Made by a program: the position numbers and the translations under genes. A DNA stretch of 64,000 bases from a virus, in the IMG/VR virus record IMGVR_UViG_3300018916_000001, positions 64,001 through 128,000 of that record. One strand, written 5' to 3'. Shown piece after piece: positions 30,839 to 63,691 of this stretch (positions are counted from its first letter, which is position 1; each line of letters begins with the position of its first letter). Under the pieces are notes generated by a model. It was not told the DNA's origin, made no database searches, and saw only the letters and a program-made list of their open reading frames with translations.

Positions 30839-31321
30839 ATGAAAAGTCAGAATATAGCTAAGATAAATCCAATAATAGATATTACTTCTCCTGTACTTCT
30901 TCAATGTAAGAGTGGAGAATGCGGTAGTTGTCCTAACAATACTGGTAAAATGCTTTGGATACTAGGAGAGATAAGCAACATTGCTTTTAACTTTAGATAT
31001 AATTTCTTTGACAAAAGTGCAGAAAGTACAAGTAGTATTAGATATAACTTAGCTACTGGAACTATAAATGGTTCTAGCGTTAGTTACTCTAATAGACCGG
31101 ATAAAGCTTGGGCAATAGCTAATACAACGATAACTTCTAGTCCAAATCTTACCCCATCTTCTATGTCTGGGTATTCTACTTTATCTCATTCCTTTGCTGT
31201 TCCTAGCAGTGGAGGATGGTTATTCTTCAGACAACCTAATCCAGCTATTAGTAACATTCATGACGCTTTATGTTTTGAATATAACCATGAAAGACGATTG
31301 ATTACTTTTCGTTCGTTTTAA
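30839..31321 (+). CDS. Hypothetical protein
   Basis: 160-aa ORF in the operon. Confidence 0.5.
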   Translation: MKSQNIAKINPIIDITSPVLLQCKSGECGSCPNNTGKMLWILGEISNIAFNFRYNFFDKSAESTSSIRYNLATGTINGSSVSYSNRPDKAWAIANTTITSSPNLTPSSMSGYSTLSHSFAVPSSGGWLFFRQPNPAISNIHDALCFEYNHERRLITFRSF

Positions 31322-31587
31322 CTACCATGTAAACTGTCCCAAATATCTACTTTTCTTTGTAGATTTAATAGGAGCTGAGTAGAAACTCCTAATCTAAGGT
31401 CAACCTCTACAGCTAAAAGATAAGTTATAGGTCTTGTACCTAGTAATACCTCTCTAAGTTTTAGGTTACTTTTACTAACCTCATTTATACTAATTCCTCT
31501 ATCTTCTAGAATATCTACTAAAATAGAACCAGGATGTAGAGGTTTTACTTTTCTCTGCATTATGTTAGTTACAAAATTCACACACAT
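31318..31587 (-). CDS. higA: Orphan HigA/VapI-family antitoxin (HTH)
   Basis: PLHPGSIL...RGIS...G.RPIT...A...LGVS.QLLLNLQ..VD.W is the HigA addiction-module antidote signature; no adjacent HigB. Confidence 0.8.
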   Translation of the reverse strand: MCVNFVTNIMQRKVKPLHPGSILVDILEDRGISINEVSKSNLKLREVLLGTRPITYLLAVEVDLRLGVSTQLLLNLQRKVDIWDSLHGS

Positions 31588-31599
31588 AAATAATTTCCT

Positions 31600-34500
31600 A
31601 TGAATGACGACTTAATAGTTCAAAAGATTCTTAAGCTATTAGAGAACAACGCTGCTTTTATTGGTTATGCCCTTAACGGTGGAATTGGAACTAAGATAAA
31701 CGTCAGAAATACTGAGACAGGAAAAACTATTCAAGCTCTTAGTATTAATGTAGATTCTAGCGGGGAAGTTTTAGTTGTTAAAGATTCCGATGACGGTCAG
31801 TATAAAGCAGTTACATTCAAAGCAGCAGAACAAGTAACTGAAAGAATCATTCAGGTAAGAAAGACTAAGCCTGTGGATGACAAAAAAGTTATTGAATATA
31901 CAGATTCAGATATTGAAGTGTTTTATCTCTTTATCAAATTAATAGATACTGGTAGTCCTGTTTCTACTCAACTAACTTCTACTTGGATTAGAAAAGGTAG
32001 CTCATGTACTCAATTTGTTGGAGCGTATGAGAGATGTAATTATGCTGCTAGAGATACTATTGAAGGAACTTCTTATATGGGTTTGCCTTATAAACCTTAC
32101 TCAAGTTTAAATGATTGTCTTAACGACGATTTAGGCAGAGATGCTAAAACTCCTCATGGGACAGGGGATGAGCAAGGTTTAGGAGCAGGATTTAAAATAT
32201 ACTCTACTAGAATGACTTCGGATGCAGAACAAGCATTACAAGCTGCTTTAATCTCTCATGACAATTACTACGGAACTAATTTTAGAAAACTATTTGGTTA
32301 TGGAAGTATTTTAGAATGTTCTGGAGGAATGTTTGTTGTAGGATGGGAATCTGGATATGCAAGCCCAACACCAGAACAACAAGCTTTAGGTCAGTCAGGT
32401 ACCTATTTTACTCGCTGCGAATTTAGTTATTTGCCTGGATACACAAATGATTGTACTATTGCACAACAAAATGCTAGATATTGCGATACAAGAGGGTTTA
32501 TTAATAGTAAAGCTCCTCTTTTTGGTCAAGAAGAACCTGGACAACCTAGTTTAAATCAAGTTGACAATACTTGGGGACATCAATATGGTTGGGTAGATTT
32601 GTCTTACGACTTTATGTATAAGAGACACTTTATACCTTCCTATGTTAATGGAGCTGCTGCACAAGGTAGCTTTTTAATCTTAGAAGTAAATGATGACCAA
32701 ACACCTACTATTCCAGAAGGTTATTTCCCTTGGACTCCTGGTTGTCCTAGTAACTTAGGAGAAGGAGGCCCATATAATGGAAGTGGAGGTAACAGGTTTC
32801 CAGATGGCCCACCAAAACTAAAAAAAAGAGATATGAAACTCTCTACTCATAAAGCTGAAATTTGGTTGGGAAGCAGTAAAAAAGAAGAAGCAATTAAACT
32901 ATATGAGTTAGGTGCAAGTGACTTATTTTCTGGGATGTACAACGCCTTTATTTTAGCAGCTAACGAAACTCAAGTAGATATAGAAAATAGACTAAGAAGA
33001 AACTTTGCAATTAGTGAAGAAGACCAAGCAAAACATATTAAATTTTATGAAAACTGCAATAAAAACATTATTGATTTAAGAATTGACCCTAGAGTTTGGG
33101 TTTACATTTTAAATAACGTTCCTCTAAGTAACTATGTTACTCCTAGTATAGACGGAATTTTTACAGACCCTAGAAACCGTTCTTTACAACAAATCGTAGA
33201 TAACTTATATAACAGAACTATTAATTTAACAGTAGTAGATAATAAAACACAAGTTGTACATTTAAAACTAGGACTAGAACCAAAAAGTGTTCTTAGTAAT
33301 ACTGATTGTAAAGGAACAAAGTCAGGTAATCTCCCTATAAGTGCTAACGATTTAACACCTAATCAAAGTTGGGAATATAGGAAATACGTAACTATAAAAA
33401 TAAAAAACTGGCAAATAGAATCTACTTCTAACACTTTAGATACTACTTTAATCCCAAATACAACGTGGAATAAACAGTATATAGAAAGGAAATTTTTTAC
33501 TTCTTTTGGGAGCCTTATTTACAATGCTAGTGGAGGAGTTGGTACTGGTAATAGCGAGAGAGATGTTGCAAATAATATATTGCTTAGACCTAATAACGAT
33601 ATTTCTTTTATAGGCTTAACTTCTGGAAACAACTATGAACAATACAATTACAGTCAAGCTAATAATCCTACAAGTAGTAGCGTTTTTACCCCTATGATTT
33701 TCTTTGTTAATAGCAGCACTTTTTTAGCTAAAAATACTTCATCTGGGGATAGTCAACGACGAGTTTTACTATCTACTTCTAGTTGGTGGGCTTTATGGGA
33801 CAGAAGTATCTTAGACTCTACTAAAAAGAGATTAAGTTCTGTAGTAGGGTATGAGAGAAATATTTATCAAATACTTACAAGTTATGGGTTAGACCCTAAT
33901 TTAAACTACACAAGTATTAGTAATAACAGTCATATTAGTAATAGAACTTACTTTGATTATGTTCTTAACAGACCTAAACTATTAGTACCTTCTAATATTA
34001 AAAGTGTAAGAAATAAGCTAGTACCAGTAACTAATGATAATAGCTTTACAGCTTTATCTACTAGAAAAAATACTCTTAATGCTTACGGATTAAATTTCTA
34101 CTATACTTATCATCTTACTTCTTGGTCACAGTATCGTTTAAGTGGTAGATTAGATAATATTACGGTTCCTAACTTAGGTGTACTGTCTCCTTTTTATGGA
34201 AATTCTAATTTAAATACTCACAATACGAGAGAAAGTGTTTTGGCTATAAATACTGATTCTGGTAGTTATGTGTCCACTCGACGATTAGATACTAATCAAT
34301 GGTTTAATAATTTTTGGGCGCAATTAATATTTGACGGTTCTATTAAAGTAGATGTGGATTCTTATAAAAATGTAGAATTTAATCCTCCTACTAATCCAAC
34401 ACGATATATTAAATACGCTACTAATCAACTTAATTCTAATAATGAGTATAGCTTTGTCTTAGATAAAGTACAAAATTTAGAAACCGTCCTTACTCCCGGA

Positions 34501-34632: not shown

Positions 34633-34703
34633 AGCGAATAAAGAGGCTCGAACTCTTGACTTCTAGTTGGAAGCTAGAAATATTACCACTATACTATATT
34701 CGC
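34633..34703 (-). tRNA. trnG: tRNA-Gly(UCC)
   Basis: GCGAATA/TATTCGC acceptor, TCTAG CT-TCC-AA CTAGA anticodon arm, AAGAG TTCGAGC CTCTT T arm, U73; CCA not encoded. Confidence 0.9.
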
Positions 34704-35014: not shown

Positions 35015-35500
35015 TTATCTCTTTAATTGGCTATGAATCTTTTCGTCTTCTCTTATAGTAGATAATATTTTAATATCTAACTTATATAGAGAATTTTTAG
35101 TGATATAGCTTAGAAACTTAACTAGATACAAAAGAAGTGAGTAATATGAATAAGCTATCTTCTCTCCATTTTGTACAAATCTTAGTAAATCTCTTGTAGA
35201 ATAGCTAGATGCAGTTTTTCCTCTAAAGATTATGTAAAATAATGGATTTCTTATAGATAACTTATTATTTACTTTCTTTTTCTCATTTTTATATTGTATA
35301 GACTCTACTAGATATTTAGAGGGTATAATTTCCTCTCGTTTATCTAATAGAGAATACAACATCTTAGAGTGTTTCTTTTCTTCTATAGATAACTGATTAA
35401 AGAAGTTAGAATACTCATCATTTCTACTAGATATCTTTTTATAGAAGTTAGATAGTGCATATTCATAATTAGCTAGTTTTCGATATATAAGACTTAACAA
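35015..35500 (-). CDS. Ferritin-like (rubrerythrin-type diiron) protein
   Basis: E...FY...EEKKH and E..A...Y...EDEKIH: two ExxH half-sites. Confidence 0.75.
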   Translation of the reverse strand: MLSLIYRKLANYEYALSNFYKKISSRNDEYSNFFNQLSIEEKKHSKMLYSLLDKREEIIPSKYLVESIQYKNEKKKVNNKLSIRNPLFYIIFRGKTASSYSTRDLLRFVQNGEKIAYSYYSLLLYLVKFLSYITKNSLYKLDIKILSTIREDEKIHSQLKR

Positions 35501-37259
35501 AACTTTTAAACTTATTAAAGATTACTCTCATTATAAATTTAAAGTCTAAATCTTGTATATTATCTAAACTAAAATTCTTAAAAGAAAGATAGTAACAGAA
35601 TAATCTAGTAAAACTCCTCTTGTATTCTTCTCTATCTACCACATATCTCTGAAGTATCTTTTTACCTATAGATACTAAATCTCTTTTATTACTGGAGAGT
35701 GAATCGTTTAGTCTTCTATAAGTTACTATATAGTCTTTCGTACATTTGAAAGTTGCTACTTGAGACAGTTGAATAAGAAAATCCCAATCTTCACATACAT
35801 TATAAGCTGTACAAAATTCTATATCATTCTCTCTAATTACTTCTGTTTTAATGAAGAGATTAGAACCACATCCTAAGAAGTTATATTGAATAGCATCTTT
35901 AAAGACATCTCCATTACAAATTTTAGCTTTACTTTTAGTTACTATATCTCCTCTCTTATCTAGAACTCTACTATAAACACAATCTACATAAGGATATCTC
36001 TTAAATGTCTCAACGGATTTCTCTACTAATTGAGAATCCCAAGTATCATCTGCATCACAAAATGAGATAATGTCTGTACATAAAGCTAATCCTTTATTTC
36101 GTATAAAAGAAACACCTTGATTACATTCATATTTAAGTAAAGAAAACCTATCTCTTATATCTTCACTTAAACAACCTATAAATCTCTGGGATATCTCATA
36201 ACTTCTATCTGTACTAGCATCATCTATAATTACTACTCTAATATTTTTATATGTTTGATTAGCTATAGAAGATAATGTTTCTTCTATATAATCTTCCTTA
36301 TTATAAAGAGGTACTACTACATAAACTTCAGGTATATAATCTTTTAAAGAACTATTTTTGACAACACCTTTATTTAGATAAAATTGATAATCTAACTTCT
36401 TTTTATTAACTACTAAATCATATATAGTTTCTTTAGTTATTGGATGCTCAAAGCAGTTCTTTATATAATCAAATCTTTCTCTATATCTTTTACTAAAGCC
36501 CTCTTCAATTTGTTTAGATATATTCTTATCTCTATTAGATTCGACTTCTTCTGTAGTTTTTAATATATTCTCGTGATGTTGTTCATTACCTATATTAGGA
36601 ATTACTTTTAATGTGTTTTCTATCCTACCATTTATAAGATATTGAATGTCTGCTTCAATATACAGTGAGTTTAATAAAGATTCTAGAGTTTTATATGGAT
36701 TCTCAGTTAGTTCTCTATAAGTAATACAAAAACTATAAGGAATGATAGTCGTATCATTGTACCAACTTACTTTTACTGAGTTCTCTAGTATATCTTTGCC
36801 ATATACATATTTCTTAACTATAGAAGTATTAGGTTCATTTCTCTTAGAGATTAAATGTATATATATTTCTACTAGAGATTCTTCGTACTTTTCACAAGCT
36901 CCTAGTAAATCCATTTCTCCAAATAGCTCTAAATTATCTTTACTAGCTTTTAATATAGATAATACAGTAGGTATAGGAGGTCTTACGATGTATATAACAT
37001 AAATATCTCTCTTACATAATTTTCTCAGTTTATCAATATCTTCTAGATAAAGAGCGTGGCAAGGTGTCTTCTCTATAAGTATTCCCTCATTAAAAGAATC
37101 TAAATAAGTTGCTAACTCTTCTAATGTCTTTACTCTATTACTAAGAAGTTTACTCTCATATAAAATCTTAGTATTAGGTAATCCACACAAATAAGAAAGT
37201 AATAATGTACTTCCTGATCTACCCGCACCTACTATAAATATCAGTTTTTTGTTACTCAT
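35469..37259 (-). CDS. Sulfotransferase + family 2 glycosyltransferase fusion
   Basis: FIVGAGRSGSTLL, EKTP and IVR.P...S PAPS-binding motifs; then VVVPLYN, DDASTD, RNKG, DADD and EDWDF GT2 motifs. Confidence 0.9.
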   Translation of the reverse strand: MSNKKLIFIVGAGRSGSTLLLSYLCGLPNTKILYESKLLSNRVKTLEELATYLDSFNEGILIEKTPCHALYLEDIDKLRKLCKRDIYVIYIVRPPIPTVLSILKASKDNLELFGEMDLLGACEKYEESLVEIYIHLISKRNEPNTSIVKKYVYGKDILENSVKVSWYNDTTIIPYSFCITYRELTENPYKTLESLLNSLYIEADIQYLINGRIENTLKVIPNIGNEQHHENILKTTEEVESNRDKNISKQIEEGFSKRYRERFDYIKNCFEHPITKETIYDLVVNKKKLDYQFYLNKGVVKNSSLKDYIPEVYVVVPLYNKEDYIEETLSSIANQTYKNIRVVIIDDASTDRSYEISQRFIGCLSEDIRDRFSLLKYECNQGVSFIRNKGLALCTDIISFCDADDTWDSQLVEKSVETFKRYPYVDCVYSRVLDKRGDIVTKSKAKICNGDVFKDAIQYNFLGCGSNLFIKTEVIRENDIEFCTAYNVCEDWDFLIQLSQVATFKCTKDYIVTYRRLNDSLSSNKRDLVSIGKKILQRYVVDREEYKRSFTRLFCYYLSFKNFSLDNIQDLDFKFIMRVIFNKFKSFVKSYISKTS

Positions 37260-37260: not shown

Positions 37261-37647
37261 TTAGAGAAAATCCTTATAATCTACTTTAAAATACTTACCT
37301 AAAACTTTAGCAATAGATCTATCTATCTCACGAATTTCATGTAAAATATCTCTAGTTAAACTATCACTTCCAATCACAGAAACTAAGTCTTCAAAAGTTA
37401 GCTCTAAATTTTCCATTAAAGCTTTTAAAAATTCTAAGGGTTCTAACTGTGGCAAAGGATAATGTTCATCTTCATACTCTTCGATTAAAAGAGATAAAAG
37501 ATGTCCTACCATTTCATCTTCTTGAGTACGATTATCTCCAAATAGTAAAGATTCTACTAACTCTAAGTATTTGTCGTATTGTTCTTCAGATTCGATTTTC
37601 TTAGGAACAATCTCAGATAATTGAATGTATCTCTCTTGATAGAACAT
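37261..37647 (-). CDS. higA: Orphan HigA-family antitoxin (E. coli HigA/YgjM-like, cyanobacterial style)
   Basis: IESEEQYD..L..VE.L...L.LLIEEYE.EHYP....P..FLK.LME...L...DL..VIGS...AK.LG.YF.V; no toxin neighbour. Confidence 0.85.
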   Translation of the reverse strand: MFYQERYIQLSEIVPKKIESEEQYDKYLELVESLLFGDNRTQEDEMVGHLLSLLIEEYEDEHYPLPQLEPLEFLKALMENLELTFEDLVSVIGSDSLTRDILHEIREIDRSIAKVLGKYFKVDYKDFL

Positions 37648-37651: not shown

Positions 37652-38047
37652 TTACTTCTTCCTAATAATCTTTGGATCTTCTGATTCTTCGTATCTACTA
37701 AATCCTAAGAAGTCACCTGAATCATGACTGAGATAAGGGTCAATCCAATTTACAAAGTTCTTTATCTCATTAGAATAGTTCTTTAAATTACAACGAATAC
37801 ATAGAAAATACTGTTCTGCTATATCATCAAATCTTAGAGTAGAAATAGTATCAGCAGCAAAATAGTAACTATCACAAGTTAACATATATTGCCATCTCTC
37901 ACTCTGACTAAATAAAGGATGTGAAGAAAGTGATATATTTACCTCCTCTATCTCGTGATAAATCATGTACTTTAGAATATCGATTATTCTCTTAGGAGTA
38001 TCTTTACGTAACCTAGCATTAAAATGAAACTCAGTGTACATTCCCAT
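37652..38047 (-). CDS. Conserved phage hypothetical protein
   Basis: MGMYTE...LKNY..EI..F..WI.PY...G..RYEE pattern, familiar from phage hypothetical proteins. Confidence 0.6.
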   Translation of the reverse strand: MGMYTEFHFNARLRKDTPKRIIDILKYMIYHEIEEVNISLSSHPLFSQSERWQYMLTCDSYYFAADTISTLRFDDIAEQYFLCIRCNLKNYSNEIKNFVNWIDPYLSHDSGDFLGFSRYEESEDPKIIRKK

Positions 38048-41395: not shown

Positions 41396-41665
41396 CTATA
41401 AATCATACATTAACTCTTCAACTCTTTCGTAACAATCATCGTAATACTTAGCTTCTCTTTCATCTACTACTTCTTCTATCTTTTCAATAACTACTCTAAA
41501 TCTTGTCCCTGTAGAAAAATCTCTAAGAAGTTTTTCAAGTTCTAGATACTCCTTTTCATTTAAAGTGAAAGCGTAAGAGATAAGTAGAGATAATACAGAA
41601 TAATTATCTGTTAACTCTTTATCTTTTATATCATCCCACCATTTTATAGTATTCAATTCAATCAT
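41396..41665 (-). CDS. Hypothetical protein
   Basis: 89-aa ORF. Confidence 0.55.
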   Translation of the reverse strand: MIELNTIKWWDDIKDKELTDNYSVLSLLISYAFTLNEKEYLELEKLLRDFSTGTRFRVVIEKIEEVVDEREAKYYDDCYERVEELMYDL

Positions 41666-42239
41666 TCTTTTCTTCTAACTCTCTTAGCTCTTTTTGTCTA
41701 TATCTAGGTAATTCATCATTATCGAAATTAACTTCATCACTGTAAAGACCCTCCAAGTGTTCCCATAAGTCAATAATTATTCTATCTTTCTCATTTTCTC
41801 TATATAAAAGCTTCCTAAATCTAGGAAACTCTTTCTTATACATTTTATAGAGCTTAAGATTATTATCAATGCTAAACTCTGTATTTACAATTCTATCGGC
41901 TAATTTAATAGTCAAAGCTGCATAATTCTCTCTAGTTTTTGGAGCTGTCTTCTCAAGTATTTCTTCTCTATTTTTACCTGGTTCATTGGTTAAATCAAAT
42001 ACCATATCTGCTACTTCACTACCAAATACTGATTTAAGAAGCTCGTAAGTAACAGGAGTATCTTCTAATGAATCATGTAACCAAGCACCAGAAAGTACAA
42101 TACCATCTTTTATACCAAACTCCTGTAAAGTTAGAACTACCTCTTCTAGATGTTTTGTATAAGGTAACTCCCCATAAAACTGATTTTTATGTACCAATCT
42201 AGCAAATAACTCTGCTTGTTCACTTAATAGCATTTTCAT
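41658..42239 (-). CDS. HD-domain hydrolase of the RelA/SpoT (Mesh1/small alarmone hydrolase) type
   Basis: A...H..Q...PY..HL..V, AWLHD.LEDT, V..LT and IKLADR..N motifs. Confidence 0.85.
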   Translation of the reverse strand: MKMLLSEQAELFARLVHKNQFYGELPYTKHLEEVVLTLQEFGIKDGIVLSGAWLHDSLEDTPVTYELLKSVFGSEVADMVFDLTNEPGKNREEILEKTAPKTRENYAALTIKLADRIVNTEFSIDNNLKLYKMYKKEFPRFRKLLYRENEKDRIIIDLWEHLEGLYSDEVNFDNDELPRYRQKELRELEEKND

Positions 42240-42522
42240 TTAATTTCTCTATATCTAATAACTTTGTGTTCAAGTAATCTAAACTGCACTTAGTTTGCTT
42301 TATTTGTCTTTCTAAATATTCCTTCTCTCTTATAAGAAAAACATCTACCTCTTTCTTCATCTTATCTATTAGCTGTTCTACTGTATCAGCGTAATGTCTA
42401 TAAATATAGTAGTAAATATCTGAATTATAAATCTTACTATATAACGTACCTATTAACTTTTGGTTTTTCTTACTTTGACAAATAGTTATATAAAAGCCTT
42501 TATAGTTAATTTGAGTTCGCAT
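42220..42522 (-). CDS. HicB-N-terminal-like domain protein (1 domain)
   Basis: YKGFYITI.......LIG......ADTVEQL...MK.EVD.FL. Confidence 0.55.
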   Translation of the reverse strand: MRTQINYKGFYITICQSKKNQKLIGTLYSKIYNSDIYYYIYRHYADTVEQLIDKMKKEVDVFLIREKEYLERQIKQTKCSLDYLNTKLLDIEKLNENAIK

Positions 42523-43701: not shown

Positions 43702-44133
43702 CTAATTCCTCTCTACTACTCTATTATCTATTTCAGTGTATATCTTAGGTGGAGGTAACAATTCCGGTACATAACCTATAACTCTTAAATCAACATTATA
43801 TTTTTTAGCATTATCGATTGTATGTTTTGTACCTTTACTCGTCCCATTCCAGAAACAAATACAGTGAGTAGCATATTTCAACATTTCAATATTTCTTACC
43901 ATTCCAGCGCTTTTACCTTTTTCCCAATCAGGTATAAATTTCTTTACTTTATAATCTCTACTTTTAGCATAAGCTTCTCCTAACCTATCTGCACCTCTAG
44001 CACCACCAGATACAATTTCTACTTCACATTCTTCTTTTAAAATTTCTTCTAGATATCTATCAACTTCTCTATCTAATAGTTCTGGATTATTAAAATCTCT
44101 AGAACCTGCAATAATCAATTTTATGTCTACCAT
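43702..44133 (-). CDS. SLOG-superfamily (YspA/DUF2493-like) protein
   Basis: IIAGSR.F, IVSGGARGAD.LGE.YA, AG..RN..M, FW.G.SKGT.H.I. Confidence 0.85.
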   Translation of the reverse strand: MVDIKLIIAGSRDFNNPELLDREVDRYLEEILKEECEVEIVSGGARGADRLGEAYAKSRDYKVKKFIPDWEKGKSAGMVRNIEMLKYATHCICFWNGTSKGTKHTIDNAKKYNVDLRVIGYVPELLPPPKIYTEIDNRVVERN

Positions 44134-44579
44134 TGTTTACCACTTTTATTGTAATTAACTAATTGATAATGAATATTCACTTGTTCTAATAGTTTATCAA
44201 TGTACTTCTCAAAAGAAGCTCTAACTCTTTCTATATTCTGTCCTTTAAAAGTAGGAGCTGCCATATTAGTACCAGGTAAACTACCTATTAATTTTCCAGA
44301 ACTATCTTTACTAACTCTTAATTTAAAGTCTTTATAGGTAAGAATTATACTATTGCTTTTCTCTAACTCTTTCTGTTTCTCATAGTATTCCTTTAAGCCT
44401 TCATCTACTTTCTTTTCAAACACTTCTCTTAATTCTTTTACGGTTACTCCAGATACATCGTAATAAACACCACTAGCTACAGGAAAATATTTATTCTTTC
44501 TAATTCTTCCTATTAAATAATCATCAGAATGAACATAAACATCTAAAATAAAACCTAGATACTCTAATGTATTACTCAT
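44127..44579 (-). CDS. Tandem HicB-N-like domain protein (2 domains)
   Basis: LEYLGF...LIGRI...G.TVKELREVFEKKVD and LTYKDF...LIG.L....TFKGQNIE.VRASFEKYID. Confidence 0.65.
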   Translation of the reverse strand: MSNTLEYLGFILDVYVHSDDYLIGRIRKNKYFPVASGVYYDVSGVTVKELREVFEKKVDEGLKEYYEKQKELEKSNSIILTYKDFKLRVSKDSSGKLIGSLPGTNMAAPTFKGQNIERVRASFEKYIDKLLEQVNIHYQLVNYNKSGKQW

Positions 44580-44633: not shown

Positions 44634-45494
44634 TTATTTACTATAATATCTATCGAAATAATCTTTCTTTACGTCTAATCTACTTAAATAGAGTAAATCT
44701 CCAAATAACTGATAAATATCTTCTAACTTTTCACTTAATGTACTAGCACTAAAATTAAGACTCACATCTTTCTCATATAATATATCTAAATGTTTTTGAT
44801 ATTGTTGCAATTCTGGTTCATGTATTTCTTCTTGCTTCACTTTCTCTACTACATTTTCAATATCTTCTATTCCTTCTGGAGATTCTATATTAATCAATCT
44901 TAATTTACTAGAATGACTACTATCATGTATAAATATAGGAGATAAATCTATATCTACATAACTAGCATTTTTATATTGATTGCTGTTAGTAATAAGTCTT
45001 AGATAACAAGTAATACCATTACTATGCTTAATAATATATAAGAGAACTTTCTTCGGTGTATTATTAGATACATTAAGGTAGTTTAGAAAAGATCTAAAAT
45101 ATTCATCTTTAATTAGCGCATATCTATACTCAAAAGAATTATCAACATACTCACTATATTCGGAAGACCTATAGTAGAGGTTAAATTTAATTTGAGTTGG
45201 ATCATCATCTCTAAAATCTCTAAACACTAGATTCTTGAATGCAAGAGTAATAATTTCACTTGTTGGATAAGATTTTTTATCTTCCATAGTATTTTCTTCT
45301 TTCTTAAGCTCAATGTTCATGATATATCCTAACTTACTAAAGATTTCGATTAGTGTTTCTACAGTCGGTACATTTTTGCCAGACTCAATTTTAGAAAGAT
45401 AAGGTTGTTCAATGCCAATAATCTTAGAGAACTGAACTTGAGTTAAACCTAAATCTTTCCTTATCTTAGTGATTTCTTTTGCAATGTTGAACAT
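44634..45494 (-). CDS. XRE-family HTH regulator with a C-terminal domain of unknown function
   Basis: IRKDLGLTQ..FS..IGIEQPYLSKIESGK..PTVETL. Confidence 0.85.
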   Translation of the reverse strand: MFNIAKEITKIRKDLGLTQVQFSKIIGIEQPYLSKIESGKNVPTVETLIEIFSKLGYIMNIELKKEENTMEDKKSYPTSEIITLAFKNLVFRDFRDDDPTQIKFNLYYRSSEYSEYVDNSFEYRYALIKDEYFRSFLNYLNVSNNTPKKVLLYIIKHSNGITCYLRLITNSNQYKNASYVDIDLSPIFIHDSSHSSKLRLINIESPEGIEDIENVVEKVKQEEIHEPELQQYQKHLDILYEKDVSLNFSASTLSEKLEDIYQLFGDLLYLSRLDVKKDYFDRYYSK

Positions 45495-45549: not shown

Positions 45550-45702
45550 TTACTTAGTCTTATCATTAAAACCAAAAATATCCTCGTAGTTTTTAGCAGC
45601 TTTCTTAAGCGATTCATTAGGTTCGGGTGAGTTTTCTATAATTTCCCATAGTTGTTCTGCATCTTCTCTACTCAACCTAATAGACTTACTAGACTTTTCC
45701 AT
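45550..45702 (-). CDS. Unannotated 50-aa DUF1778/TacA-type antitoxin C-terminal half (no RHH domain)
   Basis: MEKSSKSIRLSREDAEQLWEIIENSPEPNESLKKAAKNYEDIFGFNDKTK matches I.LS..D...F...L.NPP.PN..L..AA..Y. Confidence 0.75.
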   Translation of the reverse strand: MEKSSKSIRLSREDAEQLWEIIENSPEPNESLKKAAKNYEDIFGFNDKTK

Positions 45703-45805
45703 TTTTGGAGTTCGAGCAATTAGATTAAACTTGAGAGCTGTACGAGCTAACTATTGTCTAAATCCCATAATAAGTATCTCCTGTAAACGTTATATTTTAC
45801 TTCTA

Positions 45806-52977: not shown

Positions 52978-53457
52978 CTACTTATACTCTTTTCCCATTA
53001 TCTGATTATATAGATAAGCTGTTTCTTCTAACTCATCTATATATTCCTCAAAATCGACTTGCATATTAGACACTACTTTATGATAAAATTTTCTTGTACC
53101 TTTTGGAGCATTTCTAATTCTTCCTATCATATAACCTTTATCTAATCCATCTTCTACGCCATACTCAAGAACTACTCCTTTATAAGTCAATATATCTTTC
53201 TCTTTCTTAACTTCTTCTAATTGAGTAGTTATAGAAGCTAATTGTTCTTCTAATCTTTTAATACGTTCTTCTTTAGATTCAACATTATCTATAGTATCTC
53301 TAAACTTCTTCAATAAATCTACTCTACTTTTATTTAGTAACACTACATTAGCTTCAGTACATTCTCCTTTATAGAGATTAGTAGAGAAATCATATACTAT
53401 ATCTAAGACATACTCTTTATAAAAATAAGAAGTAGTATATATAGTTCTCTCTAACAT
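52978..53457 (-). CDS. Tandem HicB-N-like domain protein (2 domains linked by a coiled coil)
   Basis: YKEYVLDI.YD.....YKGEC......L.K.FRD.ID and LTYKGV......MIGRI........DFEEYIDEL. Confidence 0.6.
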   Translation of the reverse strand: MLERTIYTTSYFYKEYVLDIVYDFSTNLYKGECTEANVVLLNKSRVDLLKKFRDTIDNVESKEERIKRLEEQLASITTQLEEVKKEKDILTYKGVVLEYGVEDGLDKGYMIGRIRNAPKGTRKFYHKVVSNMQVDFEEYIDELEETAYLYNQIMGKEYK

Positions 53458-54224: not shown

Positions 54225-54386
54225 CTATCCTCCTACTCTTTCACGAAAACAACTCTCTAACCATTCCTTACTAGAAGCTTCAATATAAATACCTAACTTC
54301 TCACATTTACCTTCATATTTCTTAGTAGTAGGATTATAATCAATCTCTAGTTCGTAACTGTTATACCCGTAGATAAACTGAGCCAT
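54225..54386 (-). CDS. Unannotated 53-aa single HicB-N-like domain
   Basis: MAQFIYGYNSYELEIDYNPTTKKYEGKCEKLGIYIEASSKEWLESCFRERVGG*; AAGGAG RBS; close paralog of the first domain of the 54397 ORF. Confidence 0.75.
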   Translation of the reverse strand: MAQFIYGYNSYELEIDYNPTTKKYEGKCEKLGIYIEASSKEWLESCFRERVGG

Positions 54387-54396: not shown

Positions 54397-54729
54397 TTAT
54401 ATTACCGAATCTACATATTCCATGAAGTCGTTCTTTAGATTCTGTTCTATATCTGAATTACTAAAATAATTTAATTCTGCACAACTACCATAGTAAATAT
54501 CCTGACTTTTATTAATGATCAATTCATAATCTAAATAAGGAAAAGTTATCATTTCATTTCTCTGCTTTATTAGTTTATTAACTAAGATTCTAAACTGAGA
54601 ACTTAATACTCCTCTACTTATATCTTCTAACTTAACTCCTAACTTAGGACAATTACCTTCCCATAATTGGGATTCGGGGTTATAAGTTACTATCAACTCA
54701 TAAGTTCTATAAGTGTAATTACTGCTCAT
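54397..54729 (-). CDS. Tandem HicB-N-like domain protein (2 domains)
   Basis: YRTYELIVTYNP....WEG.C.KLG.......L...FR..VN and YLDYELII......YYG.C.EL.......L...F.EYVD. Confidence 0.7.
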   Translation of the reverse strand: MSSNYTYRTYELIVTYNPESQLWEGNCPKLGVKLEDISRGVLSSQFRILVNKLIKQRNEMITFPYLDYELIINKSQDIYYGSCAELNYFSNSDIEQNLKNDFMEYVDSVI

Positions 54730-54807: not shown

Positions 54808-54975
54808 TTAATTAACTAAATCTAACTTTGCATTTACAAATCTCTCAAAAGAATCTACTAAAGAAGCAATAGTATCTAGTGTTCTCTTAAAACCTAACTC
54901 TTTGCATTCTCCAGTGTAATAGAAACCTTTTTCAGATAATAGTAAAGTGTAATTTTGATACTTATAGCTATTCAT
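54808..54975 (-). CDS. Unannotated 55-aa single HicB-N-like domain
   Basis: MNSYKYQNYTLLLSEKGFYYTGECKELGFKRTLDTIASLVDSFERFVNAKLDLVN*. Confidence 0.7.
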   Translation of the reverse strand: MNSYKYQNYTLLLSEKGFYYTGECKELGFKRTLDTIASLVDSFERFVNAKLDLVN

Positions 54976-56983: not shown

Positions 56984-57535
56984 CTAAGAGTTTGTCTCTA
57001 ATTTTTTTAGTTCATCTAATAGTTCTCTGACTAAATCAGGATATTTACCATGGGTACCAATAGGATGACTTCCATAAATTTGATAGAATCTCTTTACAAA
57101 TTTCTCTAAACTTTTCTCTTTAGTGAATATATCTGCTAACTTATCTAACTTTTGCTCTATTCTTTCTAGACTATTAGGTATTAGTTGCTTCTTCTCTTCA
57201 GAAATTTTCCAATTGATATATTTCTTAAATTTAGTAATGTTAGCTTCTTCGTCTTCTCCATAAGTTTTGTAATCTAATTCTTTGCAATAACCACCTTTCC
57301 TCTTTTGTCCGTAATTGTCCTCTATTAATCCTAGTTTTAAGAGATAACCTTTATACTCAAAAGACTTTATAAGATTATCTACCTCCCATCTAAACCTACT
57401 AACTAATTGATAAAGACTACAACCTTTCCATGCACCATTTATAAAAGAAAGAGTAGATTCATCACATTTAGTTTTAAAACCGTTATATTCTTCCTCAATC
57501 TCTAAAATGTAACCTTTATACTCTAGTTTCATCAT
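56984..57535 (-). CDS. Tandem HicB-N-like domain protein (2 domains + helical tail)
   Basis: LEYKGYILEI...G.SL.QL..RFR.EVD and FEYKGYLLKL...GYCKEL....G......KFKKYIN. Confidence 0.7.
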   Translation of the reverse strand: MMKLEYKGYILEIEEEYNGFKTKCDESTLSFINGAWKGCSLYQLVSRFRWEVDNLIKSFEYKGYLLKLGLIEDNYGQKRKGGYCKELDYKTYGEDEEANITKFKKYINWKISEEKKQLIPNSLERIEQKLDKLADIFTKEKSLEKFVKRFYQIYGSHPIGTHGKYPDLVRELLDELKKLETNS

Positions 57536-57692: not shown

Positions 57693-57908
57693 TTAATCTC
57701 TAGTAACTATACGAATTGTCATTTCTTCTCTTTTCTCTAGCTCTGATGCCGTAGAGATAAAACTACCAATTAGAGTGTTAAAATCTACTTTCCAACAATC
57801 TTCACAAAAAGAAAGAATATCAAGACAAGAAGTTTTATAGCAATCTTTTTCTTCCTCTATACTTTCTACGGTTAAGATATATCCATTACATTTACATTCA
57901 AACTTCAT
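57693..57908 (-). CDS. HicB-N-like domain protein, paralog of the first domain of the 56984 ORF
   Basis: GYILTVE......YKT.C...LSF....WK....L...F. Confidence 0.55.
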   Translation of the reverse strand: MKFECKCNGYILTVESIEEEKDCYKTSCLDILSFCEDCWKVDFNTLIGSFISTASELEKREEMTIRIVTRD

Positions 57909-57937: not shown

Positions 57938-58234
57938 TCACCAATTATGTAACTTAGCCCAATCTCTTAACTTAACATTGTCTTCTACTAATTGATTGTG
58001 AAATTTATAGTGTATCTCTTCATCAATTCTTCTTTCTATTTGTTCTATAAGATGAGTGAGAGAATCTGAATCATACCAACCATTAAGACCTAGAATTTCA
58101 CCTGATAAACATTCTCGTTCTGCGTCTAGATATATCTCGTATTTGTAATCTCGATATTCTTTAGTTAAGACAGGATTAAAGTCACCTTCTAGTTCATTTA
58201 TTTTTATTTTCTTTACAATATTCAGGAGGGACAA
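57938..58234 (-). CDS. HicB-N-like domain protein
   Basis: EYRDYKYEIYLD.E...L.GEILGL......DSL..L...IE..IDE. Confidence 0.6.
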   Translation of the reverse strand: MSLLNIVKKIKINELEGDFNPVLTKEYRDYKYEIYLDAERECLSGEILGLNGWYDSDSLTHLIEQIERRIDEEIHYKFHNQLVEDNVKLRDWAKLHNW

Positions 58235-58475
58235 GTTCTTCTAGAAAGTAATCGTACTTATCTAGTTCAATCTTGACTTTAATAAACTGAGATAGATAAT
58301 CTACTTGTTCTTGATTTTCAAGATAACAACCATTAAAATATCTTTCCCGATTAAGAAGTCCTAAAGGCTCTAACTCATCTTCATTTAGTCTTTCTGTTAA
58401 ATATTCCTTACCTATTTGTGTTTCAGTTTCTTTATCTACCCAAAACAAAGCTGCTAACATAAAATTAGATTTCAT
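58194..58475 (-). CDS. Colicin E3/cloacin immunity (Im3)-like protein
   Basis: LFWVDKETETQIGKEY..LEPLGL..FNGCY..YLSQFIKVKIELDKYDYFLE versus Im3 as recalled: [47 protein letters not shown]. Confidence 0.65.
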   Translation of the reverse strand: MKSNFMLAALFWVDKETETQIGKEYLTERLNEDELEPLGLLNRERYFNGCYLENQEQVDYLSQFIKVKIELDKYDYFLEELVPPEYCKENKNK

Positions 58476-58662
58476 TGTCTCCTCCTGACAAATTCAAATC
58501 GTCTAATCTAATAAACTCTGAGTTTTCTTCTTTAGCTACTTGTACAGATATCTCAAATGCTTTAGTATCAGAGAAACCTAACTCATCCAATGCAAATTCG
58601 TAAGAGTCTAAATCGAATTGAGTTAAATTAAGTGGAATGTCTGAGTTAGTCATTATCTTCAA
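58465..58662 (-). CDS. Small acidic protein resembling an antitoxin C-terminal tail
   Basis: D.KAFE.....AKEENSEFIRLDDL; weak match. Confidence 0.45.
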   Translation of the reverse strand: MKIMTNSDIPLNLTQFDLDSYEFALDELGFSDTKAFEISVQVAKEENSEFIRLDDLNLSGGDNEI

Positions 58663-58885
58663 CCTCTATGAAATAATCGTACTTAGTTACGTCAATATTA
58701 AGTTTTACTAATTGAGTAAGATAATCTATTTGCTCTTGAGTTTCTACTTTATTACTACAAAATCTAAGTAACCCTAATCTCTCTAGTTCTGTTTCATCTT
58801 GTACATTTAGACTGACTTTTCCTATAGAAGCTTCACCGTTATAACCGTTTTCCCACTTTGTCCACCAACTAAGAATCTTATCCAT
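58646..58885 (-). CDS. Second Im3-like paralog
   Basis: LSWW.K....IG....LE.LGL....ETQEQIDYL.Q.VK.NID..KYDYFIE. Confidence 0.6.
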   Translation of the reverse strand: MDKILSWWTKWENGYNGEASIGKVSLNVQDETELERLGLLRFCSNKVETQEQIDYLTQLVKLNIDVTKYDYFIEVEDND

Positions 58886-60617: not shown

Positions 60618-61513
60618 CAGTTTTGTTATCCTAGTGGCTTTTTATCCTCTAGTTCTATAGATTCTCTATTCTCTATAGCTCGGCGTACCTTTTCATCTTT
60701 TTACGGATGCCCTGCACTCTTGGAGCTACACCAAAAAAGTATAGGAGAAAATTTTCTCGGATTATATTTTTTGTAAGTTATGTCTTTTAACTGCCCTTCT
60801 AATAGTATCTTCGTGAACTCCAAGAAGATTTGCAATTGCTTTCTGTGATAGTTGCTGAGCAATATAAAGTTCCAAAAGAATATCTTTGGTAATTTTACTG
60901 CTTCTATCTGGTAGATTATGTTGTTTTGGTCTAGTAATACCATACCTACTAACAACTTTTTGAATTTGGTATCTAGAAACTTTATATAAGTGGGCTAGAT
61001 GTCTAGTGGAGTGACCTTTAAGATACAAATCAACAACGTTAACAATTTCACTTTCAGGTAATTCTAGAGGTTTTCTCCTCCATTTTTGACCACCTGGACA
61101 TAAATTGTAACCTTTTGCGATGGAGTCGTATAATTGTATATAAAACTCCTCACGCTGATTTAGTTGGTCTAGAGATATAGACTCTTCTAGCACCTCGAAA
61201 TAAAATTTATCTTTACCGTATTTAGCAATTGCTCTACTTATTATTTGGGAGCGATTAGTTTTTAGCAGCTTTAGATGCTGCTTAAATCTTTTTACAACAG
61301 GCTGTATCGTCTGACCAATGTAGACTTTACTATTTATTGTATTTCTAATAATGTAGATACTACCTGTTTCAGTTTCCATAACATAATTTACAAAAGTTCA
61401 CCCTCTACGCTCTACGGTGTCAAAAGCATATTACCTCTTCTGATTACCACGGGATTAGCAATTCACAGCCTTCCCCGTTTTTGCAAGGTTTTTTAATTGA
61501 GGCAATATTATTT
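60618..61513 (-). mobile_element. Group I intron (896 nt) in nrdJ
   Basis: The 5' exon ends in U (GGT|) and pairs with GCC in P1; P3 CCTTGC/GCAGGG; P4 elements ACGGGGAA/AATCCCGT; P7 GAGCGTA/TACGCC; terminal G at 60618. Removal restores CG|EI. Confidence 0.92.
60762..61379 (-). CDS. Intron-encoded GIY-YIG homing endonuclease with C-terminal HTH modules
   Basis: GSIY.I.N..N.KVYIGQT...RF..H, E..YI..YDS...GYN...GG, followed by two HTH-like units. Confidence 0.92.
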   Translation of the reverse strand: METETGSIYIIRNTINSKVYIGQTIQPVVKRFKQHLKLLKTNRSQIISRAIAKYGKDKFYFEVLEESISLDQLNQREEFYIQLYDSIAKGYNLCPGGQKWRRKPLELPESEIVNVVDLYLKGHSTRHLAHLYKVSRYQIQKVVSRYGITRPKQHNLPDRSSKITKDILLELYIAQQLSQKAIANLLGVHEDTIRRAVKRHNLQKI

Positions 61514-63193
61514 ACCACAATTGTGCGTAACTACTCCTTCTACTACTCCCCAATTAGTAAGCGGTTCAGTAAAATCATAAACTTTAGCTACTCCTGAAGG
61601 TTTTACAGATATAACAAATGGATTTTCTTTTTCTTTATCAAAAGATTGTAGAGTCTCCATTAATAAAAACTCAGCAGCTACTTCTCTATCATCTGATGTT
61701 AGAAAAATATGGTCGAGTGTACAATAAATCTTCTTATCGTTAGAAAGAGTAAGTTCTACTGTTTCTTTTACCCCTGTTTGCCAAACCTTAGATTCACTAA
61801 TATCTCCATTAGGATTAATGATATTAAACGTCTTTCCTTCTAACTCCTCTAGTGTTTTATAACCTTCTGTAGTGAGCAAGTTCGCATCTCCTCGGAGGCT
61901 AGGATTTAAACCGTAACGACGAATCCTATGTTCTAGCTCTCTACCATCCATCTCAGGAGATAACTCTTTTAAGTAATTAGCTCCTTTCCTAATAGAAGTT
62001 ACATAAGCATTAATAAACTTTTTCTTCTTCTTCGGAGTATCTAATAAATCTGCATTTGCCCTTGCTACTGCTTCTGGTACATATTGAATGGCTCCTTCTC
62101 CACTATAAAATTGCTTTCTAACAGCTTCAATAGTAGTTTCTAAATCAGGTTTAACGTGATAGCTAACAGTTAAATTAGCCATTCGCAACATATCTCTTTC
62201 GGGGTCTACTTTCCAATTCCCTTCTTCATCTTGAATCCATAAACCTAACTTAGCATTAGTAAAGTTTTCATCATCTGGACTTCCTTGATGCAAAAGTGCT
62301 GACCTTCTTATATCAGCTACAACAGTGATAACACCTGCAATGTCTAGTAATTTACAGCACTCTAGACTATTTAATCCTCTACCTGCTGCCTTAGTGATAA
62401 TATTAATCATATCAAGTAGACCAGAAATCAACTTATCTGGATTACTTAATCCTCCAAAGCTCTTAAGAACTTTCCCTTTAGGTCTTACGTAACTTGCATC
62501 TATTCTAAAATTAATTTTTTTATATTTATAATCTTTTGGAAAATCAGAATAATCTACACCCCACGTCCCAATATTAGAATCTAGTAAATAAGTAGAACTT
62601 AGTTCTAGTAAATCAGTTGCCATATCTACCCAACCTTCTTTACTATCTCCAACAATATAATTAATACCTAACGTATCATCATCGATTTTCCAAGTTGAAA
62701 AACTACTATCATCAATACTATTTCCTTCTACCCAATTTGTTCCTAACTCTGTAATCTCTACTACTTCAATAGGATATTTAATACTAGGTAAGTTTTCAAT
62801 TACCTGTTCTTCAACTACTGTTCCAACTCCACATCCCATCAATAAAGCCCGGAAGTTAAATCTAAACGCTTCCCAGCTATCGACAGGTACACTAGCACAG
62901 TTATAAGCACCGATAAAATTCTTCTGCTGTTTAACCCAATTAGTTCCTCCAATCCAAAACCAACGTCCAGATACAAAAACAATATTTCTATAAAAATACT
63001 CTCTTATTAATCTTAATTCATCATCAGTTAGCAATTCAAAATCTTGTAGTCCCTTAATTGCTCTATCTTTAGCTTCTAACGCAGTTTCCTTAGTTCCATC
63101 TAATGATGTTCTAGAGTAACTTCTAAGAAAGAGAGGATAAGCAGTGTTAGCTTTAAAATCAACGTTTTTAGGTAGCTTCATATTTTTAGTCAT
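61514..63193 (-). CDS. nrdJ: Class II ribonucleotide reductase, exon 1 (contains an intein)
   Basis: RSYSR, SGR.FW.GGT, YNC, LMGCGVG, VGDSKEGW, VRP.G..LK.FGG, IRRSA, RMAN, SGEGAIQ, YGLNP. Start taken at ATG 63193 (track start 63226). Confidence 0.95.
61520..61900 (-). mobile_element. 127-aa mini-intein (Ser1 ... His-Asn, +1 Cys), no endonuclease
   Basis: NP|SLRGDANLL; block B CTLDHIFLT; block F VYDF; block G VVTHN|C. Confidence 0.92.
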
Positions 63194-63377
63194 GTTCTGT
63201 ATAAAATTCGTAAATAATAAAATCAATATATTTAGTAAGGTCTAGCTCAGTTAATTTCTTAACTACATAATCTTTAGTTGGATAAGCAGTAAAACCATCT
63301 TTTACACTTAATTGCTGTAACACAATCATTATTCCTTCTTCTCGTCCTGTTTGAAAATAACTAAGTGTTCTATCCAT
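63186..63377 (-). CDS. Hypothetical protein
   Basis: 63-aa ORF overlapping the nrdJ start. Confidence 0.5.
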   Translation of the reverse strand: MDRTLSYFQTGREEGIMIVLQQLSVKDGFTAYPTKDYVVKKLTELDLTKYIDFIIYEFYTEHD

Positions 63378-63433
63378 TTATTTAATGTTCTGATATTCTA
63401 ACTTTTAAAATTTAGTAGATACACATTGATAAC

Positions 63434-63691
63434 TTATTCTTTATTATTCCTTTTATCCAATTTCAAAATCTTATCTACACTTCTTTTCATTCTTCCTTTT
63501 AGATATTCAATTTCACACAATTCAATTTCTAACTTAGCTGACTCAAATAGTTCTTTAGGATTAGAACCTCCGACTATAATTTCTATGTCATTACATTCAG
63601 AGCCAAAGATATCAGCTAACCATAAGTGAGGAAAACTAGGTGTTCTTATACAATTTCTATCTATAATTACTTCATAGTTTTTATATAGCAT
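63434..63691 (-). CDS. HicB-N-like domain protein
   Basis: MLYKNYEVII.......W.A.I........GG.NPKEL.E.AK..IE. Confidence 0.55.
   Translation of the reverse strand: MLYKNYEVIIDRNCIRTPSFPHLWLADIFGSECNDIEIIVGGSNPKELFESAKLEIELCEIEYLKGRMKRSVDKILKLDKRNNKE

Follow-up and report, generated by a model that had tools for sequence, protein, structure and literature searches.

Homologues of antidotes from five cyanobacterial toxin modules, without recognisable toxins, in a 151-kb phage genome

The sequence analysed is a stretch of 64,000 nucleotides, hereafter the window, corresponding to bases 64001-128000 of the IMG/VR virus record IMGVR_UViG_3300018916_000001. The record totals 151,199 bp, carries 127-bp direct terminal repeats, has a G+C content of about 30% and represents a phage, probably of a cyanobacterial host. 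Judged from sequence homology, this phage encodes toxin-less relatives of the antidotes of five cyanobacterial modules, namely HigB(PF05015)-HigA, HigB_toxin(PF09907)-HigA, TacA-TacT (where the toxin is of the GNAT type), E3-type rRNase-Im3/DUF7683 and HicA-HicB. We give about even weight to the view that at least part of this set binds and silences host toxins freed during infection, thus acting as a counter-defence.

A first-pass annotation, made from the sequence alone, had listed antidote-like genes from at least four unrelated families. Sequence, profile and structure comparisons bear out homology for five kinds: both HigA types, TacA, Im3/DUF7683 and, by profile-profile comparison, the N-terminal part of HicB (HicB-N). 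The principal genes, apart from the HicB-N-like ones, are listed below with their window coordinates, strand, length in amino acids (aa) and the evidence used for their assignment.

31318..31587, minus strand: orphan HigA-like protein of the TIGR02607/VapI type, 89 aa (TIGR02607, PDB 3cec)
37261..37647, minus strand: orphan HigA-like protein of the E. coli type, 128 aa (5ifg_B/5ycl, cyanobacterial HigA)
44634..45494, minus strand: 286-aa protein with an N-terminal XRE helix-turn-helix (HTH) domain and a C-terminal part without assigned family (HTH_3, E 4.6e-12, residues 10-56)
45550..45702, minus strand: 50-aa peptide corresponding to the C-terminal, toxin-neutralising half of TacA/DUF1778, without the ribbon-helix-helix (RHH) domain (Pfam TacA1)
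58194..58475, minus strand: colicin E3 immunity-like/DUF7683 protein, 93 aa (Cloacin_immun, DUF7683)
58646..58885, minus strand: second DUF7683/Im3-like paralog, 79 aa (paralogy and family profile)

Antidote-like genes and their bacterial counterparts

The proposal that gene 45550 encodes the C-terminal half of a TacA/DUF1778 antitoxin is confirmed by a match of 28.9 bits to Pfam TacA1 (PF08681, gathering score 21), which is confined to profile positions 44-79 of 80. Its alignment partners among solved structures are the toxin-bound C-terminal fragments of DUF1778 antitoxins (7ak9_C, 7zg5_C, 6gtq_C and 6ajm_C). No RHH half can be encoded upstream of it, because only 103 nt separate it from the DHFR gene and the frame, with about 17 further conserved residues, is closed by a TAG. 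The frame upstream of the start codon (45703-45770, minus strand; 1483-1689 in locus L044) is conserved at the protein level with the related phage contig G404: LARTALKFNLIARTPK. The TAG of this upstream frame corresponds to a TGG in G404, which lacks the internal ATG and carries the motif with a 4-residue deletion ('ESLK').

Of 401 sampled cyanobacterial genomes, 35 contain a longer open frame whose C-terminal part is matched by the 50-aa peptide. At the twelve best loci (L013-L024) there are TacA-type open reading frames (ORFs) of 92-115 aa, with a GNAT ORF of 164-171 aa alongside in six; two of these six GNAT ORFs are Pfam-confirmed. The phage peptide retains all of the columns which are invariant among the 12 cyanobacterial TacA C-termini (8/8). 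A TacA1 family search in the Oscillatoriales metagenome-assembled genome (MAG) holding a relative of gene 31318 found nothing.

Structure prediction places the peptide on a cyanobacterial GNAT toxin: co-folding of the two yielded an ipSAE of 0.85 in 3/3 runs, while the best of 3 controls reached 0.00, with a partner pLDDT of 77 and at least 89% of the contacts agreeing between runs. In calibration, the mark applied is reached by 58/80 solved complexes and by 2/110 mismatched pairs, counts which are approximate here, where custom alignments were used. Since TacA-TacT-type complexes have been solved, such a pass shows likeness to a competent neutralising segment, not binding.

The RHH-less TacA-C motif ('L-S/T-E.D ... 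NPPxPNEALK.AA..Y') is found in 15 other IMG/VR viral contigs (L025-L039), with no GNAT gene adjoining. The scaffolds bearing it vary, and include peptides of 63-81 aa, proteins of 177-180 aa and proteins of 360-504 aa, most of the latter showing, by eye, hydrophobic, transmembrane-like N-termini and a heptad-rich middle. The Pfam TacA1 cut-off was passed by 7 of the 10 viral TacA-C proteins tested, always over profile positions 36-79 only.

The gene for the 286-aa XRE protein comes directly downstream of the peptide, and G404 (L044) keeps both as a two-gene module. The XRE protein is not matched by a local hidden Markov model (HMM) of TacT, and is therefore no GNAT. Its C-terminal portion of about 230 aa has no assignable family or fold, and the ESM Atlas gave no usable match (Atlas model pLDDT 0.43).

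The two Im3-like proteins of the first-pass annotation were likewise recovered by independent means. Gene 58194 scores 32.7 bits with Cloacin_immun (PF03513, cut-off 25) and 29.0 bits with DUF7683 (PF24731, cut-off 27), while gene 58646, which is 48% identical to it, reaches 21.3 bits with DUF7683, under the cut-off of 27. An exhaustive profile search among 1.84 billion representatives found only 16 Im3-like relatives. The family profile, with 58646 included, matches ImmE3 (1e44_A) over its full length with E 8e-5. The AlphaFold2 (AF2) model of 58194, with a pLDDT of 87.5, has a sole significant Foldseek match, ImmE3 (3eip_A; E 3.8e-4, probability 1.0, TM 0.62/0.68), the next match having E 0.31.

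The family profile finds matches in 9 of 401 cyanobacterial genomes, and six of the ten matches are stand-alone ORFs of 83-109 aa. Directly upstream of DUF7683, three of these six stand-alone loci carry a gene for the colicin E3 rRNase domain (PF09000 'Cytotoxic', E 1e-31 to 1e-34), as reported here:

L047, 104-714: cyanobacterial rRNase-DUF7683 two-gene module
L049, 1143-1737: cyanobacterial rRNase-DUF7683 two-gene module
L056, 1498-2564: cyanobacterial rRNase-DUF7683 two-gene module

Two of the three upstream rRNases are stand-alone toxins of 82 aa (E 1e-31 to 1e-33); among the cyanobacterial E3-domain proteins there is also a multi-domain toxin of 256 aa that includes an Ntox1-like part. 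Because cyanobacterial DUF7683 follows a small E3-type rRNase, the family is tied to Im3-type immunity, and the module resembles a toxin-antitoxin (TA) system. Two metagenomic architectures were also observed. In P0007 (227 aa) a domain like that of gene 57938, described below, is fused to a C-terminal DUF7683, and in the window the corresponding genes are adjacent (57938-58475) in the order opposite to that of the fusion; P0010 is formed by three tandem DUF7683 domains.

The largest family, named YKGY here, is HicB-N-like. Iterated searches of all ORFs with a local HMM showed 13 proteins of the genome to contain about 20 copies, in total, of a domain of 52 aa, with the consensus Y-K/R-G-Y/F..L.V, then G.C.EL, then L...F...VD. 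About 14 HicB-N-like domains had been claimed for the window. A combined-profile search gives a close figure: nine copies are robust (44127 x2, 52978, 54225, 54397 x2, 54808, 56984 x2) and one is likely (57938), three more being only marginal (57693, 63434, 42220). The corresponding genes are:

42220..42522, minus strand: marginal YKGY-like candidate, 100 aa (combined HMM, E 0.076)
44127..44579, minus strand: 150-aa protein with two YKGY domains, at 44394-44579 and 44187-44354 (local HMM; phrog_9151)
52978..53457, minus strand: 159-aa protein with one N-terminal YKGY domain, at 53278-53439 (local HMM)
54225..54386, minus strand: stand-alone YKGY domain, 53 aa (local HMM)
54397..54729, minus strand: 110-aa protein with a tandem YKGY pair (local HMM)
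54808..54975, minus strand: stand-alone YKGY domain, 55 aa, the copy that was modelled (AF2, Foldseek, VIA-align 2)
56984..57535, minus strand: 183-aa protein with a tandem YKGY pair, at 57368-57535 and 57203-57367 (local HMM)
57693..57908, minus strand: marginal YKGY-like candidate, 71 aa (combined HMM, E 0.0024, partial match)
57938..58234, minus strand: 98-aa protein with a probable divergent YKGY domain, adjoining the Im3-like genes (combined HMM, E 1.2e-4)
63434..63691, minus strand: marginal YKGY-like candidate, 85 aa (combined HMM, E 0.0073)

The relation of YKGY to HicB is based on structure matches, on phrog_9151 and on profile comparison; as neither Pfam HicB model matches, the link at sequence level comes only from comparing profile with profile. 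The 44127 protein matches phrog_9151, 'HicB-like antitoxin', with E 2.9e-5; the YKGY profile gave only chance-level matches against PDB sequences. The AF2 model of 54808 (pLDDT 96) has a beta-beta-beta-beta-alpha topology, and its top Foldseek match is the HicB-like 2yzt, with probability 0.97 but E 0.3. Among the 50 best matches found by the structural aligner VIA-align 2, eight are HicB/UPF0150 structures (2yzt, 6g1c, 6g1n, 6u0i, 1wv8, 2dsy, 3kwr and 3k6q), with Z 4.2-5.3 and a root mean square deviation of 1.4-2.5 A over 45-46 residues; other small folds have similar values of Z. Comparison by hhalign with 14 cyanobacterial HicB N-domains gave a probability of 94.5% and E 7.7e-8 over 48 of 53 columns, while controls (the reversed profile, 20 column-shuffled ones and three unrelated alignments) reached at most 3.8%. 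The 14 domains had been picked independently, through a C-terminal match to PF05534, a model which covers the C-terminal part of the cyanobacterial proteins.

In all five cyanobacterial genomes checked (5/5), a PF07927 HicA gene lies directly upstream of hicB, and each genome holds 4-34 HicA matches. The cyanobacterial genomes G066 and G161 (reached through loci L064 and L063), with 34 and 16 PF07927 matches, are on a scale comparable to the roughly 20 HicB-N-like domains of the phage. The phage copies have no RHH part, PF05534 finding no match in the phage, and some of them form tandem arrays of 2 to 5 domains per protein.

Both HigA types named in the first-pass annotation were recognised as such. 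Gene 31318 stands alone on the minus strand, at the point where the plus-strand block ends. It matches TIGR02607 (antidote_HigA) over profile positions 2-77 of 81 with E 1.8e-9 and 37.3 bits, under the 47.7 cut-off, and also phrog_1381, 'plasmid antitoxin with HTH domain'. In the PDB, 3cec_A, a putative HigA-type antidote protein, matches the whole length of the protein (E 1.4e-12, residues 11-87 vs 11-91), and Proteus HigA (4mcx and 6chv) matches weakly. No Pfam HTH family is found in it at E <= 1, and in the alignment to 3cec about 4 residues are missing from HTH helix 2. A scan for bacterial relatives with this single protein returned only two loci, in an Oscillatoriales cyanobacterium MAG (42% identical) and in a Blastocatellia MAG (40%), and in both (L011, L012) a PF05015 HigB gene is located directly upstream of HigA. 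These two loci give a weak indication of the host.

Gene 37261 resembles E. coli HigA (5ifg_B, 5ycl; E 0.0018, residues 17-122 vs 23-131) along its entire length and shares 34% identity (E 3e-19) with a cyanobacterial HigA (L050), which itself follows a PF09907 HigB_toxin gene. It also matches phrog_1373 ('transcriptional regulator') and phrog_11202. No Pfam HTH match is detected in the phage protein, whereas its cyanobacterial homologue has one.

The earlier statement that several of the antidote-like proteins have lost their DNA-binding domain holds for the TacA and HicB homologues, in which the RHH is missing; for the HigA types it is reduced to an HTH which Pfam does not recognise. Three weaker, antitoxin-tail-like peptides (6283, 55866 and 58465) belong to no Pfam or PHROG family and gave nothing with the TacT and HicB HMMs, so that they were dropped.

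Toxin searches and occurrence in related phages

The absence of any recognisable toxin, previously noted for the window, extends to the whole 151-kb genome, where cognate toxins might have lain outside the window: none of the searched families was found. At E <= 10, no match was obtained for HigB (PF05015), ParE/RelE (PF05016), HicA (PF07927), the E3 domain (PF09000) or GNAT (PF00583 and PF13508), and at E <= 1 none for HigB_toxin (PF09907). A local HMM built from cyanobacterial TacT toxins detected nothing in the phage. In tool controls the searched toxin families are found in reference genomes, except PF09000 and PF09907, for which no control genome reached the cut-off. By comparison, cyanobacterial relatives of all five antidote types sit beside HigB, HigB_toxin, a GNAT TacT, an E3-type rRNase or HicA.

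Four related phage contigs from IMG/VR, of 150, 147, 65 and 130 kb, were searched for PF05015, PF07927 and PF09907 only, and no match to these was found. The occurrence of the antidote-like genes in the four contigs is as follows:

HigA-like gene (31318): 4/4, syntenic
E. coli-type HigA-like gene (37261): 2/4
YKGY family: 9 and 11 matches in two contigs, 0 in the other two
TacA-C peptide with its XRE neighbour: 1/4
Im3-like domain: at least one (the 150-kb contig), fused to an N-terminal extension

Gene 31318 keeps its position in all four, with an identity of 45-64%, similar to that of the neighbouring genes; gene 37261 is found in G402 and G403. By this pattern, 31318 is like a core gene, whereas the others vary as accessory genes do.

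Counter-defence and competing explanations

The proposed course of events would be the following. Infection would shut off host gene expression, and labile host antitoxins would then decay, freeing their toxins. The phage would supply, at a minimum, the TacA-C peptide, the two Im3-like proteins and the expanded family of HicB-N-like domains, and these proteins would bind translation-attacking toxins one-to-one and hold them inactive, which would prevent abortive infection. What the analysis shows is homology, the lack of cognate toxin genes, the way in which the bacterial relatives are arranged, and which of the genes related phages keep or vary; toxin binding, the timing of expression and the benefit to the phage are inferred.

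Counter-defence appears the most economical reading because five unrelated antidote families co-occur without toxins. It is further favoured because the parts kept are those which bind the toxin in characterised relatives, the DNA-binding parts being lost or decayed; this fits proteins that need only to bind a toxin, and not to autoregulate an operon. The variability of the genes among related phages, the abundance of the matching toxins in cyanobacteria and the positive co-fold point in the same direction. The counter-defence interpretation of the first-pass annotation is partly supported. Its suggestion that the phage collects host antitoxins finds no sign of recent collection, the bacterial relatives being only 34-50% identical.

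Several points weigh against this reading. It draws on homology and prediction. As a rule, a type II antitoxin acts on its own toxin specifically (PMC11825919), and with the nearest bacterial relatives found at only 34-50% identity, the set may not fit real host toxins. The co-fold may have passed because the predictor had memorised the TacA-TacT and AtaR-AtaT complexes already solved. For the YKGY family, the Pfam HicB models PF15919 (HicB_lk_antitox) and PF05534 (HicB) have no match in the phage genome at E <= 10; the fold matches of the modelled domain are modest (Z 4.2-5.3), AcrIF24 and the double-stranded RNA-binding domain (dsRBD) scoring as well; and an array of up to five tandem domains per protein has no parallel in any antitoxin characterised so far. 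Finally, gene 31318 is a core gene whose rate of evolution is close to that of its structural neighbours, and a role as regulator would suit it just as well.

A wider form of the counter-defence reading is advanced only tentatively. The genes would jointly form a multi-family anti-toxin arsenal suited to TA-rich cyanobacteria, combining TacA-C as a general GNAT inhibitor, Im3-like proteins directed against E3-type rRNases and HicB-N sponges. The portable RHH-less TacA-C motif would inhibit GNAT toxins that acetylate Gly-tRNA, and would have been grafted on unrelated scaffolds, as in at least 15 other viral contigs; the Im3-like proteins would block small E3-type rRNase toxins; and the HicB-N arrays, acting as multivalent sponges, would soak up the host's numerous HicA paralogs (in the sampled cyanobacteria, 4-34 per genome). 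If true, type II TA and immunity mimicry would make up a broad counter-defence with trimming at the level of single domains.

The alternative which survives best, although we consider it rather unlikely, is that these are ordinary phage regulators or interaction modules, whose likeness to antidotes reflects shared ancestry. The HigA-like proteins would be XRE-type transcription factors, and YKGY and DUF7683 would bind proteins or RNA in the course of host take-over, with no connection to toxins. The constant position of 31318 in four relatives, at an identity like that of its neighbours, agrees with this, as do the phrog_1373 label of 37261, the resemblance of the YKGY fold to the dsRBD and to the N-domain of AcrIF24 at similar Z, and the arrays of up to five repeats. 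However, Pfam HTH models fail on both HigA-like proteins, and 31318 is about 4 residues shorter than 3cec in HTH helix 2. No regulatory role is known for TacA-C or Im3-like proteins, whose retained parts are the toxin-binding ones, and five antidote families occurring together without toxins would be unexpected by chance.

Cognate toxins might instead be present and have escaped recognition, the TacA-C peptide being paired with the 286-aa XRE protein, or 37261 with its 131-aa neighbour, and serving for example in the exclusion of rival phages. This appears improbable. The conservation of the TacA-C and XRE genes as a two-gene module in G404 speaks in its favour, and the XRE C-terminal 230 aa, having no assigned family, leave a small chance of an unrecognised partner for TacA-C; no GNAT signal, however, is found anywhere in the phage. 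The second pair consists of 37261 and the gene at 37652-38047 (131 aa, phrog_4334), which lies upstream of it with a 4-nt gap, and it recurs in G403. The phrog_4334 protein was nevertheless rejected as the hidden toxin of 37261. Its family is present in 80 unrelated phages, and no annotated HTH or antitoxin gene adjoins it in the two neighbourhoods inspected, for which reasons it is not likely to be the cognate toxin; moreover, G402 carries the HigA-like gene without phrog_4334 beside it. The HicB-N-like and Im3-like genes, for their part, have no consistent partner gene.

There is similarly little likelihood that the set protects against toxins of competitors, such as E3-type bacteriocins, contact-dependent toxins of neighbouring cells or the TA systems of resident prophages and plasmids, keeping the infected cell productive. 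Im3-type proteins are the classic immunity against delivered rRNase bacteriocins (PDB 1e44, 1jch and 3eip), and the 256-aa cyanobacterial E3-domain toxin with its Ntox1-like part would suit such a role. On the other hand, two of the three E3-type toxins beside DUF7683 are the 82-aa stand-alone, TA-like proteins, with no delivery domain, and HigB, HicA and TacT act inside the cell. This explanation differs from counter-defence against host toxins solely in the source of the toxin.

That the genes are decayed remnants of TA modules once carried, left without present function after loss of the toxins, is very improbable: the TacA piece is a fragment, an in-frame TAG breaks the conserved frame just upstream of its start codon and the HTH motifs are degraded, but no ORF is broken, related phages still hold orthologues at 45-83% identity, YKGY has expanded to about 20 copies (and is expanded in two relatives as well), and the TacA-C peptide retains every invariant residue.

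Genomic setting, known systems and significance

Megablast comparison of 20 kb of phage DNA with the deposited phage collection gave no match. The Mu-like portal is 27% identical to the portals of the Pseudanabaena phages PA-SR01 and Pam2. The plus-strand late block includes a single ORF of 3220 aa (7704-17366, plus strand). A small minus-strand island brings together the E. coli-type HigA-like gene, the tRNA and genes for a rubrerythrin-like protein and a protein of 596 aa. The 596-aa protein (35469-37259, minus strand) combines an N-terminal sulfotransferase-like stretch with a family 2 glycosyltransferase domain.

From 39855 to 63959 runs a long minus-strand block in which small genes are interspersed with genes related to nucleotide metabolism and RNA. 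It includes ThyA, DHFR, a class II ribonucleotide reductase with a putative intein, Thg1, an RF-1/GGQ protein and an HD_4 hydrolase, and also CYTH, Dam, DUF4326 and a SLOG-family protein. The ribonucleotide reductase gene (60762-63226, minus strand) shows a weak intein-splicing match, and a homing-endonuclease-like gene with GIY-YIG and HTH parts adjoins it. The accessory genes related to RNA or translation, and the tRNA, are:

39855-40541, 41658-42239, 53471-54220 and 47200-47898, all minus strand: genes for an ArfB-like protein with an RF-1/GGQ domain, an HD_4 hydrolase, a tRNA-His guanylyltransferase of the Thg1 family and a CYTH-domain protein
34633-34703, minus strand: tRNA-Gly(UCC), the single tRNA of the whole 151-kb genome

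The first-pass annotation saw the antidotes as backed up by an alarmone hydrolase, Thg1 and the phage's own tRNAs; the last of these amount to the single tRNA-Gly. The HD_4 hydrolase is small-alarmone-hydrolase-like, its score just reaching the Pfam cut-off. For most GNAT toxins the substrate acetylated is Gly-tRNA(Gly), a damage undone by peptidyl-tRNA hydrolase (PMC9177977), and the toxSAS FaRel2 is reported to target tRNA-Gly and tRNA-Thr (PMC11559606). The sole tRNA may thus be linked to the TacA-C peptide and the HD_4 hydrolase. As elements of translation protection, tRNA-Gly, the RF-1/GGQ protein, the HD_4 hydrolase and Thg1 are suggestive through a coincidence of annotation only, and a tie of the antidote set to the alarmone hydrolase and Thg1 is conjecture.

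The idea of phage antitoxins as counter-defence is already known. The closest case is the cyanophage S-CREM1, which carries three stand-alone antitoxin genes, YefM, TacA and MazE, for which neutralisation of host toxins was proposed by the authors as a hypothesis (PMC9964418). Like the present phage, it is a cyanophage with several unrelated type II antitoxin homologues, TacA among them. The phage described here differs in having five families and another set (two HigA types, TacA-C, Im3/DUF7683 and HicB-N), in keeping only the neutralising half of TacA, in the expansion of one family to about 20 domains and in its lineage, its portal being related to those of the Pseudanabaena phages.

In Sulfolobales, gp44 of SMV1, a viral Phd homologue, neutralises the host Doc, and ADG.51 is found in archaeal viruses (PMC11065993). 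Here too a virus carries a toxin-less homologue of a host type II antitoxin, and one viral homologue in that work keeps a single domain of the host protein, as observed in the present set. The SMV1 case was tested experimentally and concerns one family in archaea, whereas the present one is bacterial, involves many families and is a hypothesis. Orphan DarG-like/NADAR antitoxins of T4-like phages and chimalliviruses were also tested experimentally (PMC11825919, PMC13309987), and T4 Dmd and phage pseudo-ToxI count among the classic cases (cited in PMC11065993). In DarG-like proteins and T4 Dmd, as in the present set as read here, phage genes replace the host antitoxin against TA-based abortive infection; DarG-like proteins are enzymes that reverse the modification made by the toxin, whereas the present genes would bind directly, in the manner of type II antitoxins and immunity proteins. 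The Planktothrix phage PaV-LD carries a complete HicAB system (PMC6293099).

As for the individual families, the 50-aa peptide aligns exactly to the AtaR/TacA C-terminal fragment which lies on the AtaT/TacT GNAT toxin (6gtq, 7ak9), with which it shares the 'NPPxPN..LK.AA' core; unlike that fragment, it is a natural stand-alone gene with no RHH and no toxin gene. The Im3-like pair shares with ImmE3 (3eip, 1e44, 1jch) the fold (TM 0.62/0.68), a full-length profile similarity and, in its cyanobacterial members, the position after an E3-type rRNase; it differs in belonging to the sister Pfam family DUF7683, in being present in two copies and in having no rRNase gene. HicB of the PF05534 type is made of an N-terminal HicA-binding domain and a C-terminal RHH: to the former the phage domains are homologous by profile-profile comparison and compatible in fold, whereas they have no RHH and no HicA partner and occur in about 20 copies, some in arrays of 2 to 5. 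New here are the breadth of five families, an immunity-protein family included, the consistent trimming to the toxin-binding part, the HicB-N expansion and the repeated occurrence of RHH-less TacA-C on unrelated phage scaffolds.

Whether the abundant type II TA modules defend against phages, and how phages cope with dozens of them, is debated. If the counter-defence reading is true, one genome would provide a panel of natural minimal toxin inhibitors, consisting of a 50-aa anti-GNAT peptide, Im3-like proteins acting against E3-type rRNases and about 20 HicB-N domains. As each of them has a clear cognate toxin type in cyanobacteria, they are directly testable by co-expression. Because the RHH-less TacA-C motif reappears on different phage scaffolds, it might be used as a signature when searching for anti-TA genes. 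The set would extend viral antitoxin mimicry, tested for Dmd, DarG-like proteins and archaeal Phd, to a multi-family, single-domain repertoire, and would offer a concrete arms-race model for TA-rich, bloom-forming cyanobacteria and their phages.

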